From Mycolicibacterium smegmatis (GTDB taxonomy: Bacteria > Actinomycetota > Actinomycetes > Mycobacteriales > Mycobacteriaceae), in the NCBI RefSeq assembly GCF_001457595.1, contig NZ_LN831039.1, forward strand, positions 2,370,001-2,402,000: a stretch of DNA of 32,000 nucleotides, read 5' to 3'. A program made the position numbers and the translations under genes. Shown in pieces: positions 6,682-30,373 of the stretch (positions are counted from its first letter, which is position 1; each line of letters begins with the position of its first letter). Under the pieces are notes generated by a model that was given only the letters and a program-made list of their open reading frames with translations, was not told the DNA's origin and ran no database searches.

Positions 6682-7434
6682 TCAGCCCGCGGTGACTTTC
6701 CGGCGCGTCTTCTTGGCCGGCTTCTCCTCGATCAGCCGCGCGGCATGGTCGAGGATGCACTTCAGCCCGTACTCGAAGTTCTGCTCGTCGGCCGCACCGA
6801 TGCGATGTCCCTCGCTGGTGACCTGCGCCAGCAGCGGCGTGGTCTCCGGGTCGATCACCATGGCCTCTTCGAAGTCCCCGGGCGCGTTGTCGTTGGCGCG
6901 GTTTTTCTCGTAGAGCCGGTGCAGGACAACCGATCCGCGGACGTGGACCGACACGGCCGAGTAGGTGTCGAACGCGTCCTCGACCGACAGCCCCGCCTCT
7001 ACCAGTCCGGCGATCGCGGACTCGACCTCCTGTACGCCGACGCGCGCGGCGCGCGGGCTCAGCGCCGAGCGGATCAGGATGAGGTCACACAGGATGGGGT
7101 TGCCCATGAAGGCTTTCCGCATGGTGCGCGCGTGGTTGGCCAGCGATTCGCGCCAGTCCTTGGCCTCCACGTAGGGGGTGGCGACGACGAATTCGCGCAG
7201 CGCGCGATCGGTCATCGCGTTGAGCAGATCATCCTTTTTGCGGAAGTACCAGTAGATGCTTGTGACGCCGACGCCGAGATGCTTGCCCAGCAGGGGCATG
7301 CTCAGATTGTCGATCGAAACCTTTTCGGCCAGTTCGAAAGCGCCCTTGATGATGTCTTCGGGATTGATGGAACCGCGTTCGCGCCGTTGGCGTTTCTCAG
7401 CGGCCGGTTGCTTTGCCACAGCGGGCACCTCCAT
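6682..7434 (-). CDS. TetR-family transcriptional regulator (TetR-1)
   Basis: The first codon of ORF 6682..7437 is TTG and the next is ATG 7434. The N-terminal HTH is GAFELAEKVSIDNLSMPLLGKHLGVGVTSIYWYFRKKDDLL. It is a clear paralogue of 22751..23491. Confidence 0.9.
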   Translation of the reverse strand: MEVPAVAKQPAAEKRQRRERGSINPEDIIKGAFELAEKVSIDNLSMPLLGKHLGVGVTSIYWYFRKKDDLLNAMTDRALREFVVATPYVEAKDWRESLANHARTMRKAFMGNPILCDLILIRSALSPRAARVGVQEVESAIAGLVEAGLSVEDAFDTYSAVSVHVRGSVVLHRLYEKNRANDNAPGDFEEAMVIDPETTPLLAQVTSEGHRIGAADEQNFEYGLKCILDHAARLIEEKPAKKTRRKVTAG

Positions 7435-7633
7435 CAAAATCCATACCGCTCATGTCGTCGGCGCGCGGCCGGTCGATGGCGCCGAGTATGCCGTCGGCCG
7501 ACGCCTGAACTGCGCCGATGCATGCGCGTCGTCGGGTAACAACACCGTCAACCTTACCGGTAGGCATCCTGTGATCCGCTCTCCACCGGCGTCCGGCCTG
7601 TCGTTCACAGCGGTCGGCGCCGAATCACCGGAT

Positions 7634-22723: not shown

Positions 22724-22786
22724 CCGCGAGCAGACACAAAACTGCTCTTTTCAGTGATTTTCGCGCAAGATTGTGTCTGCTCGCGG
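22724..22786. repeat. REP-like palindromic intergenic element, copy 2 (probable bidirectional terminator)
   Basis: It has a perfect 16-bp inverted repeat, CCGCGAGCAGACACAA (22724..22739) and TTGTGTCTGCTCGCGG (22771..22786), with a 31-nt T-rich loop. It lies between convergent ALDH (stop 22718) and TetR-2, whose last codons and stop (22751..22786) are inside it. Confidence 0.8.
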
Positions 22787-23491
22787 GGACGAATCTCGCG
22801 GCGACGCGGTGAGGTGCTCCGCACGTTCGAGGATGCTGTCGAGGATGTGGTCGAAGTTGGCGGTATCGGCCGCGCCGATCCGGTAGCCGTCGCCGGTGAG
22901 CGACGAGATCAGCGGCATGGTCTGGGGATCGATCACCTGTTGCCAATGGTCACGGGGCAGGGGCACGGTCGACGCGCGGTTCTGCAAGCGGTGCAGCACC
23001 GCGCTGCTGCGGACCAGCACCTGGATCGCCGAATAGGTCTGGACGGCCTGCTGCGGGCTCAGGCCGGCCTGCACCAGGGCCGCGACCGGTTGCTCGATCT
23101 TCTCCAGGGCGTGGCGGGCTGCAGGTGTGCCGCCCGTACCCCGGATGAGGATCAGGTCGCACAGGATGGGGTTCTGCTGAATGGTGTCGCGCATCCGGTG
23201 GGCATGGGCGCGCAGTGATTCGCGCCAGGAACCGGCGTCGATCGACGACACCCCGAAGTCGTACTCGCGCAGCGCGAGTTCGGTCATCGCGTCGAGCAGA
23301 TCGTCCTTGCGGCGGAAGTACCAGTAGATGCTGGTGACGCCCACGTCGAGATGTTTGGCCAGTTGCGGCATGCTGAGGTTGTCGACGGACACCTCACGGG
23401 CGACCTCGAAGGCGCCGCTGAGGATCTCGTCGACGGTGATCGACCCGCGTTCGCGGCGCGGACGTCCGCCGCCCGTCGCGGGGGAGGCCAT
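22751..23491 (-). CDS. TetR-family transcriptional regulator (TetR-2), paralogue of 6682..7434
   Basis: ORF 22751..23659 trimmed to ATG 23491, 2 nt after the P450 stop. MASPATGGGRPRRERGSITVDEILSGAFEVAREVSVDNLSMPQLAKHLDVGVTSIYWYFRRKDDLL. The last ~10 codons and the stop lie inside the REP-like element 22724..22786. Confidence 0.9.
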   Translation of the reverse strand: MASPATGGGRPRRERGSITVDEILSGAFEVAREVSVDNLSMPQLAKHLDVGVTSIYWYFRRKDDLLDAMTELALREYDFGVSSIDAGSWRESLRAHAHRMRDTIQQNPILCDLILIRGTGGTPAARHALEKIEQPVAALVQAGLSPQQAVQTYSAIQVLVRSSAVLHRLQNRASTVPLPRDHWQQVIDPQTMPLISSLTGDGYRIGAADTANFDHILDSILERAEHLTASPRDSSPRADTILRENH

Positions 23492-23493
23492 GC

Positions 23494-24702
23494 TCAGCCC
23501 GCCGGGCGGAAGGTCACCGGGATCGCGGTCGGCGATCGGAATGGCTGGCCGAAGATGTGCGGATCGTCGTCGGCGATCAGGCGAAGATCGGTGACACGGT
23601 TGAGCAGGGTCTCCATCGCCACACGAGTTTCCATGCGCGCCAGGTGCAAACCCATGCACGTGTGCTCACCCGCGGCGAACGTGATGTGCGGTATGCGTTT
23701 ACGGAAGATGTCGAACTCCTCGGGACGTTCCCACCGGTTCTCGTCGCGGTTGGCCGATCCGATGCACACGTCGATCACCGCGCCCGCCGGAATCTGTACA
23801 CCTTCGAGTTCGGTGTCCTTGGTGGCTGAGCGCTGCACCGTGGTCAGCGGTGTCTCGTAACGCAGGCCTTCCTCGATGGCGGCCCCGATGAGGTCGTGGT
23901 CGTTCTGCACCGCCGCGAACTGATCGGGGTGGGTGAGAAGCAGATACAGGAGATTTCCCGACGACCGGTAGGTGGTCTCCAATCCCGCGGGCAGCAGCAG
24001 CCGAAGGAACGAGTAGATGGCCTCGTCGGTGAGTTTCTCACCATCGATCTCGGCGGTAACCAGGTCGCCGATGATGTCCTCGGTGGGCCTCGAGCGGCGC
24101 CGCTCGATCTGGTCGAGAAAGTAGTCCTTGAGGGCCGCCGACGCCTCGAAGGCGCGTTTGTACTTCACGCTGTAGGAGATGAGTTCGACGGCACGCCGAC
24201 GGAACCACGGCAGGTCCTCCTCGGGTAGTCCGAGGAGCTTCGAGATCACCCGGGTGGGGAACTCGAAGGTGTAGTCGCGGACCAGATCAGCGCTGCCCGT
24301 GTCGACGAACTCGTCGACGAGGGCCTCACAGATGGGACGCGCGATCTCGGGTTCCCAGCGCGCCAACGACTTCGACTTGAACGCCGCCGACACCAGGTTG
24401 CGGTGATCGCGGTGTGTCTTGCCTTCCATCGCCAGGATGCTCGGACCGATGAACAAGCCGATGGTGCTGTCGTAGATCTTCGAGTTGAACGTCTTGCCGT
24501 CCCGGAAGACCGTGTTGACCGCATCGAACGACATCGCCGCGTACTGATGTTCCGGCATGAGCTCTTTCGGCGTCTTCGACCAGTCCATGACCGACCCCCG
24601 GAACACGCCTGCCTGGGCGCGGTACCGCGCGAAGATCGGGTACGGGTCACGTAGCAGAGCGGCCGTGTCGACCGCTGGGTCGTCCCGTATCCGACTGTCC
24701 AC
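23494..24702 (-). CDS. Cytochrome P450 monooxygenase
   Basis: GTG 24702 with GGGAAGGGG Shine-Dalgarno. I-helix LLLPAGLETT, EEGLRYETP (ExxR), heme loop FAAGEHTCMGLHLAR (FxxGxHxCxG). Confidence 0.93.
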   Translation of the reverse strand: MDSRIRDDPAVDTAALLRDPYPIFARYRAQAGVFRGSVMDWSKTPKELMPEHQYAAMSFDAVNTVFRDGKTFNSKIYDSTIGLFIGPSILAMEGKTHRDHRNLVSAAFKSKSLARWEPEIARPICEALVDEFVDTGSADLVRDYTFEFPTRVISKLLGLPEEDLPWFRRRAVELISYSVKYKRAFEASAALKDYFLDQIERRRSRPTEDIIGDLVTAEIDGEKLTDEAIYSFLRLLLPAGLETTYRSSGNLLYLLLTHPDQFAAVQNDHDLIGAAIEEGLRYETPLTTVQRSATKDTELEGVQIPAGAVIDVCIGSANRDENRWERPEEFDIFRKRIPHITFAAGEHTCMGLHLARMETRVAMETLLNRVTDLRLIADDDPHIFGQPFRSPTAIPVTFRPAG

Positions 24703-24749: not shown

Positions 24750-24921
24750 TATGTATTGGGATAGCCCGATTTCTCGGAGTGCACCGGAGGTCGGCCTCCT
24801 CACCGGAGTTACGACAGCGGGGGTGAGTGTAAACAACTCTGTTACCGTTGGCCTCACCGGAGGAGTACGGGCCGGTCTGCGCGGTGGCCGGCGCGTCACA
24901 CGCCGAGAGGGAGGCGAATCG

Positions 24922-26409
24922 ATGAGCACGATCGACCAACGCGCGGAAAAGCATTCCCGGCAGGGCGGAGCGGCCGACGTGCTGACGGCGCAGCGCCGCT
25001 CCTTTCTCGACGACGGGCCGCCCGATATCGCGCTGCGGCGCAACCGCATCGACCGCCTGCTCGCGATGGTGCTCGACAACGCGGAGGATTTCGTCACGGC
25101 GACCGCGTCCGACTACGGGACACGGTCACGGTCGGCGGCGTTCTTCGCCGAGATCCTCGGCATGATCTCGGTGATCGAGCACACCAGATCGAACCTGCCG
25201 CGGTGGATGCGCTCGACCCGGCTCATGCGCGCGGCGCGTCTGGCCGGGTTACGCGCCGAGGTGGTGCCCTCACCGGTCGGCGTGGTCGGCGTCATCGGTC
25301 CGTGGAATTTCCCGGTCCAGTTGACGGTGCTGCCCGCAGCCGCCGCGTTCGCGGCGGGCAACCGCGTGATGATCAAGATGTCGGAGGTCACCCCACGCAC
25401 GGCGGAGGCGATGGCCGATCTCGCACCGCGCTACTTCGACCAACGCGAACTCGCTGTCATCACCGGTGGCCCTGAGCTAGCCGCCGAGTTCTCCGCTCTG
25501 CCGTTCGATCACCTGTTCTTCACCGGATCACCCGCGATCGGCGCTGTGGTGGGCCGGGCGGCCGCCGCGAACCTCGTGCCGGTGACGCTCGAACTCGGCG
25601 GCAAGAACCCGGTGGTCGTCGCGCCGGGGGCCGATATCACCCGGGCCGCGACACGAATAGCCCAGGCGCGCATGGTCAACGGCGGGCAGGTGTGCGTCTG
25701 CCCCGACTACGTGTTCGTCCCGGACCGCCATGTCGACGAATTCGTCGAGGTGGCCCGCGGCACGCTGCGCCGGATGTTTCCCACCATCACCGACAATCCC
25801 GACTACTGCTCGTCGGTCAACCGGTCCAACTTCGACCGCGTCGTCGGGCTCATCGCAGACGCACGAGCTCGCGGCGCCCGGGTCGAGTCGATCGTGCCGG
25901 TCGGCGAGGTCCTTCCCGACCCGGTGACCCGCAAGATCCCGCCGACCATCATCCGCGATGTCGACGACCGGATGCGCATCAACGACGAGGAGGTCTTCGG
26001 CCCGGTGCTCGCGGTGCGCGGTTATTCGTCGCTCGCGTCCACGATCGACTACATCAACTCACGACCGTCACCCCTGGTGGCCTACTGGTTCGGTCCCGAT
26101 GACGCCGACTTCCGGCATTTCGTCGACCACACGCGCAGCGGTGGCGTGGCGCGCAATGACTTTGCCGCCCACATGATCCCGTCGTCCGCGCCGTTCGGGG
26201 GAGTGGGGCGCAGCGGCATGGGCGCCTATCACGGCAAGGCCGGGTTCGACGCGTTCAGCCACCACCGCACCGTAGTCGGAACCGATCTGCCGTTCAGCAT
26301 CACCGGGCGCGCGGCCCTGCCGTTCACCGGATCGATGCGGGTGAGCGCCGACCTGGCGCTGTGGCGCGCCCGCAGCCGAACCAAAAACCGGCTCAGGAAG
26401 TTTCGCTGA
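24922..26409 (+). CDS. Aldehyde dehydrogenase, class-3 / coniferyl-aldehyde-dehydrogenase-like
   Basis: ORF 24751..26409 trimmed to ATG 24922 (GGGAGG Shine-Dalgarno 8 nt upstream). The 57-codon extension has A/T-rich third positions. GPWNFPVQL, FFTGSPAIG, LELGGKNPVVVAP, NGGQVCVCPDYVFV. Confidence 0.9.
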   Translation: MSTIDQRAEKHSRQGGAADVLTAQRRSFLDDGPPDIALRRNRIDRLLAMVLDNAEDFVTATASDYGTRSRSAAFFAEILGMISVIEHTRSNLPRWMRSTRLMRAARLAGLRAEVVPSPVGVVGVIGPWNFPVQLTVLPAAAAFAAGNRVMIKMSEVTPRTAEAMADLAPRYFDQRELAVITGGPELAAEFSALPFDHLFFTGSPAIGAVVGRAAAANLVPVTLELGGKNPVVVAPGADITRAATRIAQARMVNGGQVCVCPDYVFVPDRHVDEFVEVARGTLRRMFPTITDNPDYCSSVNRSNFDRVVGLIADARARGARVESIVPVGEVLPDPVTRKIPPTIIRDVDDRMRINDEEVFGPVLAVRGYSSLASTIDYINSRPSPLVAYWFGPDDADFRHFVDHTRSGGVARNDFAAHMIPSSAPFGGVGRSGMGAYHGKAGFDAFSHHRTVVGTDLPFSITGRAALPFTGSMRVSADLALWRARSRTKNRLRKFR

Positions 26410-28045
26410 GCGCCTGCTCGCGGGCCCACCGATAGTCGGCCTTGCCCGCCGGGCTGCGTTCGATGGCAGGTCGGAACACGACGGCCTTCGGCAGCTTGTA
26501 CCGTGCGATGGAACCGTCGGCGTGGCGGATCAACTCGTCGGCGTCGACCTGCGCGCCGTCGTCGACGGCGACCACGGCCACGACCTCCTGACCCCAGCGC
26601 TCGCTGGGCCTGCCCGCGACCACCACGTCACGCACCGCGGGATGCGACGCGATGGCCGCCTCGACCTCTTCGGCGAAGACCTTCTCGCCGCCGGAGTTGA
26701 TGGTCACCGAGTCGCGGCCGAGCAGTTCGATCATGCCGCCGTCGAGTTGGCGGGCACGGTCGCCGGGGATGGCGTAACGCACGCCGTCGATGACCGGGAA
26801 CGTGGCAGCGGTCTTGGCCGCGTCGCCCTTGTAGCCGAGCGGGACATACCCGCGCTGTGCGAGCCATCCGAGTCCGTCGTGTGCCTCGGGCAGCACACAG
26901 CTGAAATCCTCGGCCACCACGCAGGTGTCGGGACCGGCCTTGAACGTCCCGGTGGAGACCGCGCCGGGCGCGGACATGTGGCTCATCTGCGCACCGGTCT
27001 CCGACGAGCCGACGCCGTCGACCACGATCAGGTTGGGCTTGGAATCGATCAGCTGCTGTTTGACATGCGGGGTCAACTGCGCGCCGCCGTTGGCGATGAC
27101 GGAAAGTGAAGACACATCGACGGTGCCGTTCTGGATGCCGCTGCGGATCGCGTCGAGCAGCGGGCGGGCCATCGTGTCACCCACCACGGTGGCCACCAGC
27201 ACCTGCTCGCGTTCGATCGTGCGCACGACGTCCTCGGCGTCGAACCGGTCGGTCACATCGGGGAAGACCAGCGTCTGCCCGGTGGTCACCGCGGTCATCG
27301 CCGCCCACTGCGCGGCGCCGTGGATCAGGGGCGGCAGGATCATGAGCCTGGTGCCGGGGTTCTCGACGGCCCTGTCGACAATCTCGTCGACCGACGTCGC
27401 TGCCTCACCGGTCATCATGTTGCGTCCGCCGAATGCGGTCATGAAGATGTCGTGCTGGCGCCACAACACACCCTTGGGCATACCCGTGGTGCCGCCGGTG
27501 TACAGCACGTAGAGGTCATCGGGGCACGGCTGCACCGGCGGGGCGGCCGTCTCGAGATTCACGATCTGCTCGTAATCGACAGCGCCGTCGAGAAGTTCGT
27601 TGCCCGAACCGTCGGCGATCTGGATGAGCACCCGCAGCGTGGGAAGCTCGTCGCGGATCTCGGCGATGCGGGGCGCGAACGTCGCGTGGTACACCAGTGC
27701 GGTCGCCCCGGCGTCGGTCAGCAGGTAGTGCAGTTCGTTCTTGACGTAGCGGTAGTTGACGTTGAACGGTGCGACTCGCGCGCGGAACGATCCGAGCATC
27801 GACTCGACGTATTCGGGGCCGTTGTGGGCGTAGATGCCCAGCAGGTCCTGGCCCACCTCGTGGCCGGCCAGCCCGTCGCGCTCTGTGTGCACACCGAGAC
27901 CCTGCGAATGCAGATACGACGCAAGCCGATTCGACCGGTCCATGACCTGGCGGTAGGTGTGACGACGTTCGCCCTGGACGATCAACGGGCGGTCGGGAAT
28001 GGCGGCGGCGACGGCCTCGGCCACAGCGGGGACGGTGAACAGCAC
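26393..28045 (-). CDS. Acyl-CoA synthetase (AMP-dependent ligase, FadD-like)
   Basis: ORF 26393..28165 trimmed to GTG 28045 (GAGGAG Shine-Dalgarno 5 nt upstream). This start aligns with the N-terminus of paralogue 11503..13131. YVLYTGGTTGMPKGVLWRQHDIF, GSSETG, SPAGKADYRWA. Confidence 0.9.
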   Translation of the reverse strand: MLFTVPAVAEAVAAAIPDRPLIVQGERRHTYRQVMDRSNRLASYLHSQGLGVHTERDGLAGHEVGQDLLGIYAHNGPEYVESMLGSFRARVAPFNVNYRYVKNELHYLLTDAGATALVYHATFAPRIAEIRDELPTLRVLIQIADGSGNELLDGAVDYEQIVNLETAAPPVQPCPDDLYVLYTGGTTGMPKGVLWRQHDIFMTAFGGRNMMTGEAATSVDEIVDRAVENPGTRLMILPPLIHGAAQWAAMTAVTTGQTLVFPDVTDRFDAEDVVRTIEREQVLVATVVGDTMARPLLDAIRSGIQNGTVDVSSLSVIANGGAQLTPHVKQQLIDSKPNLIVVDGVGSSETGAQMSHMSAPGAVSTGTFKAGPDTCVVAEDFSCVLPEAHDGLGWLAQRGYVPLGYKGDAAKTAATFPVIDGVRYAIPGDRARQLDGGMIELLGRDSVTINSGGEKVFAEEVEAAIASHPAVRDVVVAGRPSERWGQEVVAVVAVDDGAQVDADELIRHADGSIARYKLPKAVVFRPAIERSPAGKADYRWAREQALSETS

Positions 28046-28064
28046 AGGGACTCCTCGGCGTCGG

Positions 28065-28682
28065 TCAAGGCTGCCAGATCTGCAGCAGTTGGTCGGTGGA
28101 GGTGACGGTGGCCAACAGCGACAGGGTGTTGTCGATGACGGCGTCGGCATAGTCGGTCGGCACACCCGCGACCGCGTCGCGCGGCAGCACCACGTGATAG
28201 CCCGCGTTGACCGCGTCCATCACCAGGTTGGTGATCGCCACGTTGACCGAGACCCCGACCGCGACGATCGTGGTCACGCCGAGGTTGCGCAAGACTGCGT
28301 CGAGGTCGGTACCGCCCATCGGTCCCAGGCCGTGCCATCGCGTGAGCACGAGATCCCCTGCCTCGGGCCCCAGTTCGGGCAGCAGCGCGGCACCGGGGGT
28401 GCCAGGTGCGATCGCGACGTCGTTGCGGCCGATTGCGAAGATCTTCGCGTTGCGGTTGGAGCCCAGGCCGTCCGGCCTGCGCTGGACCAGGCAGTGCACC
28501 ACGTGCACAGAGGCCGCGCGGGCGGCGGGCAACAGCCGCTTGATGTTCGGTAGGGCGACACGCTGCGCCTCGTCGGCGAGTGCCCGCAGACCGGCGTCGG
28601 GACCGATGACCGCACCCTGGCACTCCTGGGTGACCACCGCGGTGCGGCCGGGTGTCACCAACTCGCGCACATCGATCCTCAT
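28065..28682 (-). CDS. Isochorismatase-fold (cysteine-hydrolase superfamily) protein lacking the nucleophile Cys
   Basis: ORF 28065..28913 trimmed to ATG 28682, which overlaps the Rieske stop as ATGA. MRIDVRELVTPGRTAVVTQECQGAVIG..., GVTTIVAVGVSVNVAITNLVMDAVNAGYHVVLPRDAV. Confidence 0.8.
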   Translation of the reverse strand: MRIDVRELVTPGRTAVVTQECQGAVIGPDAGLRALADEAQRVALPNIKRLLPAARAASVHVVHCLVQRRPDGLGSNRNAKIFAIGRNDVAIAPGTPGAALLPELGPEAGDLVLTRWHGLGPMGGTDLDAVLRNLGVTTIVAVGVSVNVAITNLVMDAVNAGYHVVLPRDAVAGVPTDYADAVIDNTLSLLATVTSTDQLLQIWQP

Positions 28683-29695
28683 CCGCGGGGCAGCGCCGTC
28701 TCGACGGGAGGTACCTCGTAGAACTGCGTGGCCCATTTGCGCATGGCCATATAGGGTTTGGCGTCGATCTTGGCGAGCGCCGGATGCTCGACGTACTTCT
28801 GGTAGCGCCAGATGTCGCAGTCCTCCCACACGGTTTTGAGGAACTGCTTCTCGACCTTGGCCCGGACGTGTTCGGGCGGGATGTCGGAGGCACCACCGGG
28901 TTCTTTGGGCCACCAGATCGAATAGAACATGTCCGACACCTCATCGTCGACGGGGGTGCACGCGAAGATCAGGCGGTGGTTGGAGGAGCCCTCGAACGCG
29001 CTCATGGAGAAACCCAACCCGGAGAAGTGGCTGTGGATGCGCAGGGCCATCTTGTTCGGGTCGTCGCTGCGGGCGTCGGGCCACCCGGTCAGGAAGCGCC
29101 ACTCCTCGTCCACGTGTTCCCAGTGCAGGCACACCGGGGTGACCGTCGCGCCGTGCACGTAGCGGAAATGCGAGCTGTCCGGCCCGTTCTCGGCCACGAT
29201 CTGCGGATGCACCGGGATGGCGTCGGCCCGGCTGGAGAACTCCGGGTAGGGCCGGTAGTAGGCGTTCGGGTCGGTGTTGAACTGCGGGAACTTGTGAAAG
29301 ATGTCGGGCAGTTCCCACTGCGGCTCTTTGCCGTGCGGCTGGTACCACATGAAGATGCAGCCGTACTGCTCCTGAACGGGGTATGACCGCAAGCGCAGGC
29401 CCCGGTTCGGCTTGTCCGGCTGATAGGGGATGTAGGTGTTGGTGCCCTCGGGGCCCCACCGCCAGCCGTGGAACGGGCACTCGATGCACTCACCGACGAC
29501 CTTGCCTCCGTGACCGATGTGCGCGCCCAGGTGCTTGCAGTGCGCCTCCAGCACGTGCAGATGCCCGGACTCGTCGCGGTAGGCCGCGAGATCCTCGCCG
29601 AAGTACTTGAGTGCCTTGACCTCACCGACCGGGTATTCCGCCGACCACCCGATCATGAACCATCCGGTGACCTTCCAGGTGAACGGCACCTTCAT
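28679..29695 (-). CDS. Rieske [2Fe-2S] non-heme-iron oxygenase, KshA-like (3-ketosteroid 9-alpha-hydroxylase oxygenase family)
   Basis: ORF 28679..29794 trimmed to ATG 29695 (AGGAGG Shine-Dalgarno). The Rieske motif is CKHLGAHIGHGG...CPFHGWRWGPEG. The mononuclear iron motif is ENGPDSSHFRYVH (E-x3-D-x2-H-x4-H). The C-terminal DCDIWRYQKY...MRKWATQFY resembles the KshA tail. Confidence 0.88.
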   Translation of the reverse strand: MKVPFTWKVTGWFMIGWSAEYPVGEVKALKYFGEDLAAYRDESGHLHVLEAHCKHLGAHIGHGGKVVGECIECPFHGWRWGPEGTNTYIPYQPDKPNRGLRLRSYPVQEQYGCIFMWYQPHGKEPQWELPDIFHKFPQFNTDPNAYYRPYPEFSSRADAIPVHPQIVAENGPDSSHFRYVHGATVTPVCLHWEHVDEEWRFLTGWPDARSDDPNKMALRIHSHFSGLGFSMSAFEGSSNHRLIFACTPVDDEVSDMFYSIWWPKEPGGASDIPPEHVRAKVEKQFLKTVWEDCDIWRYQKYVEHPALAKIDAKPYMAMRKWATQFYEVPPVETALPRG

Positions 29696-29724: not shown

Positions 29725-29743
29725 TACGGAAGAAGTTACAGTA
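29725..29743. promoter_or_regulatory. Candidate TetR operator upstream of the Rieske operon
   Basis: TACGGAAG-AAG-TTACAGTA (13/16). It is also part of three direct TTACNG hexamers at 29724, 29736 and 29748 (12-bp spacing), 30 nt upstream of ATG 29695. Confidence 0.5.
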
Positions 29744-29776
29744 GCGATTACCGCACCGGGAAGGGTTGTGCCTTTT

Positions 29777-29891: not shown

Positions 29892-29910
29892 TACGGTATA
29901 CATTTCGGTA
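29892..29910. promoter_or_regulatory. Candidate TetR operator upstream of the SnoaL-like gene
   Basis: TACGGTAT-ACA-TTTCGGTA (13/16 to the reverse-complement form TACYGTAA-N3-TTACRGTA). It lies 17 nt upstream of ATG 29927 and abuts its Shine-Dalgarno. Confidence 0.5.
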
Positions 29911-29926: not shown

Positions 29927-30373
29927 ATGTCTGACGATCTCGAGGCCATCAAACGGCTCAAGGCACGGTACTGCCGACTGTTGGACACCAAGGACATCGA
30001 GGCGTGGCGCACATTGTTCGCCGACGACGTCGTCGTCACCCTGGACATGGCGGTGTCGACAGGAGGCGCCGATCCCCAGACCGCACCGCCCCTACATGGG
30101 TTCGACGAATTCCTCCCGGTGGTGTGGGGTGGCGTCGAGCATGCGGCGACGGTGCACCACTGCCACACCCCGGAGATCGACCTCACCTCCGGTACGACGG
30201 CATCGGGCATCTGGGCGATGGAGGACATGCTGTTCTTCCCCGACGGCAGCGAGTTACACGGCGCGGGCCACTACCACGAGACCTACGAAAAACGTGACAG
30301 CACATGGGTGATCACCAGCCTGCACCTGACCCGGACGCTCCTGAAGTTCAAAGCTGCCCAGCGCGACACCTGA
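29927..30373 (+). CDS. SnoaL-like / NTF2-fold protein
   Basis: ATG 29927 with GGAAGAGGAG Shine-Dalgarno. MSDDLEAIKRLKARYCRLLDTKDIEAWRTLFADDVV... and ...GHYHETYEKRDSTWVITSLHL are typical of SnoaL_4-type small alpha+beta barrel proteins. Confidence 0.75.
   Translation: MSDDLEAIKRLKARYCRLLDTKDIEAWRTLFADDVVVTLDMAVSTGGADPQTAPPLHGFDEFLPVVWGGVEHAATVHHCHTPEIDLTSGTTASGIWAMEDMLFFPDGSELHGAGHYHETYEKRDSTWVITSLHLTRTLLKFKAAQRDT

Follow-up and report, generated by a model that had tools for sequence, protein, structure and literature searches.

The Rieske oxygenase KshA of Mycobacterium and Rhodococcus is served by the reductase KshB, whose gene lies at a distance from kshA in M. tuberculosis. KshA prefers CoA-esterified substrates. 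The isochorismatases EntB and PhzD keep the Asp and Lys of their fold, and their genes sit with isochorismate synthase, siderophore or phenazine genes. A third group, the steroid acyl-CoA synthetases of the FadD19/FadD17 type, is represented by FadD19, which we take to be assigned to the PRK07798 group. Here we describe a Mycolicibacterium smegmatis operon in which a KshA-like Rieske oxygenase gene, a gene for an isochorismatase-fold protein (encoded at 28065-28682 and called ISO below) and an acyl-CoA ligase gene follow each other. It lies in a stretch of 32,000 nt, the window, which covers bases 2,370,001-2,402,000 of a 6.98-Mb single-contig genome (67% G+C). The operon is a real, widely conserved and apparently undescribed module. 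Its oxygenase, its ligase, the missing reductase and the regulon architecture around it are ordinary for actinobacterial catabolic islands; the unusual element is ISO, which belongs to an uncharacterised and mis-annotated isochorismatase-fold subfamily.

The operon and its conservation in Mycobacterium

The three genes are translationally coupled. The stop codon of the Rieske gene and the start codon of ISO share an ATGA at 28679-28682, and the ISO stop is followed by a 19-nt gap containing GAGGAG and then by the GTG start of the ligase gene. An earlier reading of the window from its letters alone (the sequence-only reading) had pointed out this overlap, the gap and the GAGGAG, and all of them were found again when the sequence was re-read. 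The same holds for the complete Rieske and mononuclear iron motifs of the oxygenase, CKH...CPFH and E-x3-D-x2-H-x4-H (ENGPDSSHFRYVH), and the KshA-like C-terminus assigned to this protein corresponds to a match to Pfam KshA_C (4.6e-28), next to a match to Pfam Rieske (1.9e-16). The ligase consists of AMP-binding and AMP-binding_C domains and reaches 735 bits against NCBIfam PRK07798 (cut-off 543), which makes it a member of this subfamily; the NCBIfam matches of the Rieske protein and ISO were sub-threshold only.

Scanning one genome per prokaryote species revealed 317 stretches encoding relatives, and the best 80, almost all of them from Mycobacterium, were used for comparison. The Rieske and ISO genes are adjacent and co-oriented in 73 of these 80 loci, with the ligase gene next in most, so that the triad is syntenic in other genomes and the Rieske-ISO arrangement is far past chance. 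The Rieske stop lies 3 nt beyond the ISO start in about 30 loci. In about 45 loci a 209-aa gene of the 4HBT/hotdog thioesterase family separates ISO from the ligase gene, and 26 to 28 have the three-gene form without it, as in the window. In locus L013 (6633-7262) and many others the start of the hotdog gene overlaps the ISO stop. The lineage of the window has no hotdog gene in the operon; hotdog paralogues of 48 and 41% identity are encoded elsewhere in the genome, at 883,738 and 3,053,853, respectively. Full-text literature searches gave no report of the triad or of a Rieske-isochorismatase combination, in agreement with the earlier statement that no description of it was known.

Of 121 species sampled from the genus, 83 encode ISO and 73 the Rieske orthologue. 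Every genome with the Rieske orthologue also has ISO (73/73), and the orthologue occurs in none of the 38 ISO-negative genomes; since the sampled species are related, these counts are descriptive and do not amount to a statistical test. Four sampled genomes (loci L101-L104) contain a Rieske-ligase or Rieske-hotdog-ligase operon with no ISO gene in between. These variants have a gap of about 180 bp at the place of ISO, and each of the four genomes keeps an ISO paralogue of 62-66% identity elsewhere, for three of them in loci L081, L105 and L106. Because there are operon variants without ISO, with or without the hotdog gene, the oxygenase and the ligase make up the core of the module, and ISO and the hotdog protein count as accessories, common yet movable. 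One of the unlinked ISO paralogues (locus L081, 8004-10375) is followed by Amidohydro_2 and MaoC-hydratase genes and flanked by acyl-CoA dehydrogenase (ACAD) genes, a ligase gene and a family III CoA-transferase gene, i.e., it sits in another CoA-ester island.

ISO represents a distinct isochorismatase-fold subfamily

With 126 bits against Pfam PF00857 (cut-off 27), ISO is a member of the isochorismatase fold, a three-layer alpha/beta/alpha structure. Its AlphaFold2 model has a pLDDT of 96.4 and finds 3kl2 as the best Foldseek match (TM 0.88). The two segments in which the sequence-only reading had placed an Ala at the nucleophile position and a Glu as the N-terminal acidic residue read GVSVNVAIT and VVTQECQ, and alignment with PF00857 members confirms both assignments: the nucleophile Cys of 3kl2, 3irv and the biuret/triuret hydrolases BiuH and TrtA, which in cysteine hydrolases belongs to a G-x-x-T-[ND]-x-C-V motif, corresponds to Ala149 of ISO, and in the alignments with solved structures Glu20 takes the position of the catalytic Asp at the end of strand 1. 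We add a third replacement that had not been mentioned before. Arg115 aligns to the catalytic Lys of 3irv, BiuH, TrtA, 3txy and YecD, with a one-residue offset in the alignment to 3kl2 only, and closes strand 111-115 of the AlphaFold2 model, at the place where the Lys of the fold sits, the end of the third strand. Hence the nucleophile Cys, the catalytic Asp and the catalytic Lys of the cysteine-hydrolase superfamily are each absent from ISO. The genome encodes only one other isochorismatase-family protein (E below 1e-10), which keeps Asp and Cys.

An exhaustive HMMER search with ISO over 1.84 billion cluster representatives delineated a subfamily of 93 clusters (50% identity) at E below 1e-30. 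Sixty of the 78 full-length aligned representatives have E-R-A or E-R-G at the three positions. Ala or Gly occupies the Cys position in nearly all of them, and the single Cys (1/78) falls in a segment at odds with the subfamily motif. In a cleaned alignment of 67 rows with 33-66% identity to the query, E20, Q22, R55, D110, R115, S145, N147 and D169 are each at least 90% conserved. Among the 80 close orthologues, Glu and Ala are kept in every one and Cys appears in none. Since E-R-[A/G] is nearly invariant across 66 distant representatives, ISO is no decayed cysteine hydrolase but a member of a coherent, distinct subfamily with a conserved pocket of its own. The sequence-only reading was to be given up if a conserved Cys aligned at the nucleophile position or if no other genome showed the triad in synteny, and the alignments and the synteny described above show that neither is the case.

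Public databases list the subfamily as "cysteine hydrolase", "biuret amidohydrolase" or "nicotinamidase-related amidase"; the ESM Atlas clusters for ISO bear generic "putative cysteine hydrolase" names only, and the names of the cluster members are equally generic. Because all three usual catalytic residues are swapped, the name "cysteine hydrolase" is wrong, and the members of the subfamily carry misnomers. That ISO is an ordinary cysteine hydrolase or amidase (a nicotinamidase, biuret hydrolase or similar), as these names imply, is highly improbable. The reading can draw on the names themselves and on BiuH as the best NCBIfam match, but this match has 52 bits, far under the 370-bit cut-off, and the alignments contradict the amidase reading, with no Cys in the 80 orthologues and Asp and Lys replaced too.

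The replacement of all three canonical residues would also fit a protein that has given up catalysis. ISO could be a non-catalytic partner of the Rieske oxygenase that is kept for binding, for example a factor for its assembly, a subunit that delivers substrate or binds product, or a regulator. This would agree with the ATGA coupling to the oxygenase gene, which recurs in close relatives (about 30/80 loci), and with the presence of an ISO-subfamily gene in every sampled Rieske-positive genome. It is also in line with a 2025 paper on YecD, a Cys-less relative with Gly at residue 145, in which the wild-type protein had no gamma-lactamase activity and a G145C variant gained some (PMC12553813). 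However, the replacements in ISO are charge-conserving and nearly invariant, along with Gln22 and Ser145/Asn147, a pattern typical of a working active site. Furthermore, Rieske-ligase operons without adjacent ISO occur in four genomes, and most of the distant ISO members are not beside any Rieske gene (20 loci, see below). We therefore regard a purely non-catalytic role as unlikely.

Distribution of ISO beyond Mycobacterium

The ISO orthologue is patchy within the family, where 20 of 200 sampled genomes carry it, mostly from the own genus. Across the phylum it was found in 49 of another 400 genomes, a tally that includes one unpublished genome (G082), which supports none of the claims made here. 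Carriers comprise a large-genome genus of the same class, with ISO in 8 of 10 sampled genomes, and several small-genome families of other Actinomycetota classes. Twenty distant ISO loci were inspected: one (L096) has a KshA-like neighbour, two have a Rieske-domain open reading frame (ORF) of another kind, and several have luciferase-like monooxygenases or cytochromes P450 nearby. In two loci of the large-genome genus (L093:6542-7984 and L095:7368-7952) ISO is convergent with an ORF that matches only a C-terminal Rieske [2Fe-2S] domain and has no oxygenase catalytic domain.

A recurrent distant operon has the order ACAD-ACAD-DinB-Ltp-ACAD-thiolase-SDR-ISO (SDR, short-chain dehydrogenase/reductase), and in some loci a TetR gene comes next. 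An example of such an ISO-terminated operon from another Actinomycetota class is L088:13-8609. No enoyl-CoA hydratase (ECH) gene was found in this recurrent operon. The general company of the ISO subfamily is acyl-CoA catabolism plus oxygenases.

A bolder proposal, to which we give a low probability, is that the E-R-[A/G] subfamily performs a chemistry new to the fold, namely a thiol-independent hydration or hydrolysis of acyl-CoA-type intermediates. In a hydratase- or thioesterase-like step, a Glu/Arg pair together with the retained oxyanion hole would act on a thioester or enoyl group by polarising it. If true, this would explain why the distant ACAD-Ltp-thiolase-SDR operons end with ISO and have no hydratase gene, why Mycobacterium genomes with the Rieske oxygenase always encode an ISO-subfamily protein, and why the presence of ISO and of the hotdog gene varies between operons.

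The oxygenase forms its own orthologous group and probably relies on a distant reductase

The best solved relatives of the Rieske protein are KshA5 (4qdc, 3.8e-29) and KshA (2zyl), and PDB matches to KshA reach just 1e-24 to 1e-29. The genome contains four KshA_C genes. The two strongest matches score 304 and 302 bits, whereas the Rieske gene of the operon scores 100 bits; its product is 27% identical to these two and 41% identical to the third paralogue. Motifs and domain architecture are those of KshA, and orthology to characterised KshA is lacking. The identity of about 27% to the strongest KshA_C matches makes the Rieske protein a separate orthologous group. The 41% paralogue is located at 859,607-860,572 of the genome, about 24 kb from the 48% hotdog paralogue (883,738-884,529) and a Fer4_15 ferredoxin gene, and this region may represent another copy of the module that has been rearranged and has no ISO gene.

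A ferredoxin or reductase gene is absent from the window, as the sequence-only reading had noted: every sizeable ORF was assigned to another Pfam family, and the genome-wide matches to Fer2, NAD_binding_1, Fer4_15 and Pyr_redox_2 all lie outside. The missing partner is not unusual, because KshA-type oxygenases use a reductase encoded elsewhere. About nine ORFs elsewhere in the genome combine NAD_binding_1 with a C-terminal Fer2 domain, which is the KshB-like domain order. None of these KshB-like genes carries the operator of the local regulon (see below); no operator-like site lies less than 3 kb from any of them.

The ligase has three paralogues in the genome. One of them, 10 kb from a KshA gene, is 40% identical, a level of identity that makes the operon ligase a distinct group. 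A PDB search found no solved structure matching the ligase at E below 1e-30.

A common operator links the operon to the surrounding catabolic island

The palindrome TACnGTAAnnnTTACnGTA occurs at 11 sites of the genome when up to 2 mismatches are allowed, compared to about 2 expected by chance. Seven of the 11 sites lie inside the window (7634, 18886, 24731, 29725, 29737, 29892 and 31131), ahead of five transcription units: the ECH-SDR operon; a pair of molybdoenzyme and aldehyde dehydrogenase (ALDH) genes; the P450-TetR genes with the divergent ALDH gene; the Rieske operon together with a SnoaL-like gene; and a pair of MDMPI and epimerase genes (Table 1). That the operator is common to the operon and the surrounding island points to one TetR-type regulon for a lipid, which is perhaps steroid- or terpenoid-like. 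The TetR-family protein encoded downstream of the P450 gene is a candidate repressor for the common operator, and we infer operator binding by either TetR protein of the window (22751-23659 and 6682-7437). Control of the operon by KstR was considered and rejected, as the operator does not fit the KstR motif.

Table 1. Genes and operator sites of the Rieske-ISO-ligase operon and its surroundings (window coordinates).
Feature	Position	Strand	Remarks
TetR-family regulator, downstream of P450	22751-23659	-	Pfam TetR_N + TetR_C_1; longest ORF, true start probably near 23491; in 21 related loci
Cytochrome P450	23494-24702	-	Pfam p450 7.1e-34
Operator, sole perfect copy in genome	24731-24749		between P450 and divergent aldehyde dehydrogenase
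Aldehyde dehydrogenase, convergent with ligase	24751-26409	+	Pfam Aldedh 9.6e-78; longest ORF, start may be at 24922
PRK07798-subfamily acyl-CoA synthetase (ligase)	26393-28045	-	550 aa, GTG start at 28045
Isochorismatase-fold protein ISO, E-R-[A/G] subfamily	28065-28682	-	205 aa; PF00857 1.8e-36
KshA-family Rieske non-haem iron monooxygenase, oxygenase component only	28679-29695	-	338 aa, ATG at 29695
Two overlapping degenerate operator copies TACnGTAAnnnTTACnGTA	29725-29755		upstream of Rieske operon
Operator copy	29892-29910		ahead of divergent SnoaL-like gene
SnoaL_4 (NTF2-fold) gene, divergent	29927-30373	+	Pfam 2.9e-25; beside Rieske gene in 49/80 loci

The neighbours of the operon are partly conserved as well. 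A P450 orthologue (at least 74% identity) lies beyond the ligase gene in 44 of the 80 loci and ALDH orthologues (69-82% identity) are found in 27. In the window, the ALDH gene runs towards the ligase gene and shares its last 17 bp (26393-26409) with it, which leaves no space for a terminator between the two. According to Pfam, the island encodes the P450, two ALDH, three ligases, seven ECH proteins, thiolases, an Ltp-like protein and ACADs, and in addition three Amidohydro_2 proteins, a SnoaL/NTF2 protein and a 3beta-HSD/epimerase-family protein. At the family level only, this content resembles a paralogue of the cholesterol pathway. Two of the outlying operator sites, at 2,410,525 and 4,924,805, precede P450 genes, one of which is followed by a Fer4_15 ferredoxin gene. 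They may mark further members of the regulon that supply electron transfer, or may match by chance.

A tentative pathway

We favour, with some confidence, the interpretation that the genes represent a conserved Mycobacterium catabolic operon within a local TetR-type regulon, serving the CoA-dependent breakdown of a hydrophobic lipid that is possibly steroid- or terpenoid-like. In such a pathway the P450 and the aldehyde dehydrogenases would convert a terminal methyl group to a carboxylate, the ligase would form the CoA thioester, and the hydratases, acyl-CoA dehydrogenases and thiolases of the island would shorten the chain. The Rieske enzyme would hydroxylate an unactivated carbon with electrons from a KshB-like reductase encoded elsewhere. 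ISO would act as an accessory, thiol-independent enzyme with Glu20 as general acid/base. Arg115 and Arg55 may bind the negative charge of a carboxylate or a CoA phosphate, and the backbone amides around Ser145 and Ala149 may form an oxyanion hole; in a docked model of YecD-G145C, the equivalent amides act as the oxyanion hole (PMC12553813). As substrate of ISO we predict an activated ester, thioester, lactone or enol ether rather than an amide.

Several points weigh against this interpretation. Its steroid/terpenoid part is based on family-level likeness only, the Rieske protein has a mere 27% identity to the two strongest KshA_C matches, and a PDB search with the P450 returned mixed solved relatives with no clear CYP125/142 affinity. 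The ISO-less operons of loci L101-L104 count here too: as at least four sampled genomes lack ISO in the operon, the protein may have its place outside this pathway step or be replaceable. Finally, catalysis by E-R-[A/G] members is a prediction, and wild-type YecD, the Cys-less relative, was inactive in the published assay (PMC12553813).

The sequence-only reading had arranged the steps differently: hydroxylation would be followed by ISO-catalysed cleavage of a vinyl ether or ester, as by PhzD and EntB, and the ligase would then activate the released acid. The gene order Rieske-ISO-ligase suits this scheme, and a Cys-less site with an acidic general-acid residue does resemble the isochorismatases. 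Yet the Asp and Lys of PhzD and EntB both differ in ISO, and the window contains no gene of an isochorismate pathway. Because operon variants lacking ISO exist (Rieske-ligase and Rieske-hotdog-ligase), ISO is not an obligatory middle step within the operon. In the commonest operon form a thioesterase-family gene stands between ISO and the ligase gene. This suits CoA esters that already exist when the ISO/thioesterase step begins, rather than arising only afterwards, and the preference of KshA for CoA-esterified substrates also speaks against the proposed order of reactions. We thus consider this sequence of reactions unlikely, and the favoured interpretation remains the CoA-dependent breakdown of a lipid with ISO as an accessory enzyme.

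Significance

The ISO subfamily is present in about 70% of the sampled Mycobacterium species and is annotated automatically as hydrolase or amidase, although the catalytic Cys, Asp and Lys are all lacking. If its reaction were defined, these annotations could be corrected and a well-studied fold would gain a further mechanistic class. The conserved oxygenase-ligase module would likewise receive a function, within lipid, steroid and terpenoid catabolic islands that are poorly mapped in environmental and opportunistic mycobacteria. Experiments can start directly from the conserved operator, as its inducer would point to the substrate.

Comparison with known systems

Compared to KshA/KshB of Mycobacterium and Rhodococcus, the operon oxygenase has the identical Rieske and KshA_C architecture and the same metal motifs, and its gene likewise stands without an adjacent reductase gene amid genes of CoA-dependent lipid catabolism. 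The difference lies in its coupling to an isochorismatase-fold gene. We know of no kshA gene coupled in this way, and full-text literature searches found none. The ligase shares the PRK07798 group with the FadD19/FadD17-type steroid acyl-CoA synthetases, passing the cut-off of the group, but is only 40% identical to the paralogue near the KshA gene. The cholesterol regulons of KstR and KstR2 are built, as the regulon described here appears to be by its sequence, from a TetR-type repressor and a palindromic operator repeated before lipid-catabolic operons. Our operator differs in sequence from the KstR motif, and the window contains molybdoenzyme, Amidohydro_2 and ISO genes and no Hsa-type ring-cleavage genes.

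EntB and PhzD (EC 3.3.2.1) have the same fold as ISO and also lack the nucleophile Cys (PDB profile matches 1nf9 and 2fq1). This part of the earlier analogy stands. The analogy is weaker than stated, since ISO has Glu20 and Arg115 where EntB and PhzD have Asp and Lys; by its residues ISO is not a genuine isochorismatase. The genomic context differs too, the neighbours of ISO being an oxygenase and a fatty-acyl-type ligase, and none of the annotated ORFs of the window belongs to isochorismate synthase, dihydroxybenzoate (DHB) or phenazine pathway families. An aryl-acid module like EntE/EntB/EntH, with ligase, isochorismatase and hotdog protein, was ruled out, as the ligase belongs to the fatty-acyl/PRK07798 type and neither a carrier domain nor an isochorismate synthase is present.

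The closest solved Cys-less relatives of ISO are YecD of E. coli (1j2r, 9e-27) and BTH_II2229 (3txy, 1.2e-29), which have the triad D-K-G. These are structures of isochorismatase-family proteins without assigned function and without a known link to a Rieske oxygenase. They have Gly at the Cys position within a G-x-S-x-N-x-G motif similar to that of ISO, but retain Asp and Lys where ISO has Glu and Arg, so that ISO is not YecD-like by its residues. The best sequence match of ISO is 3kl2 (1.7e-37), a putative isochorismatase of Streptomyces avermitilis from structural genomics, which has Glu at the Asp position like ISO but keeps the Lys and the nucleophile Cys.

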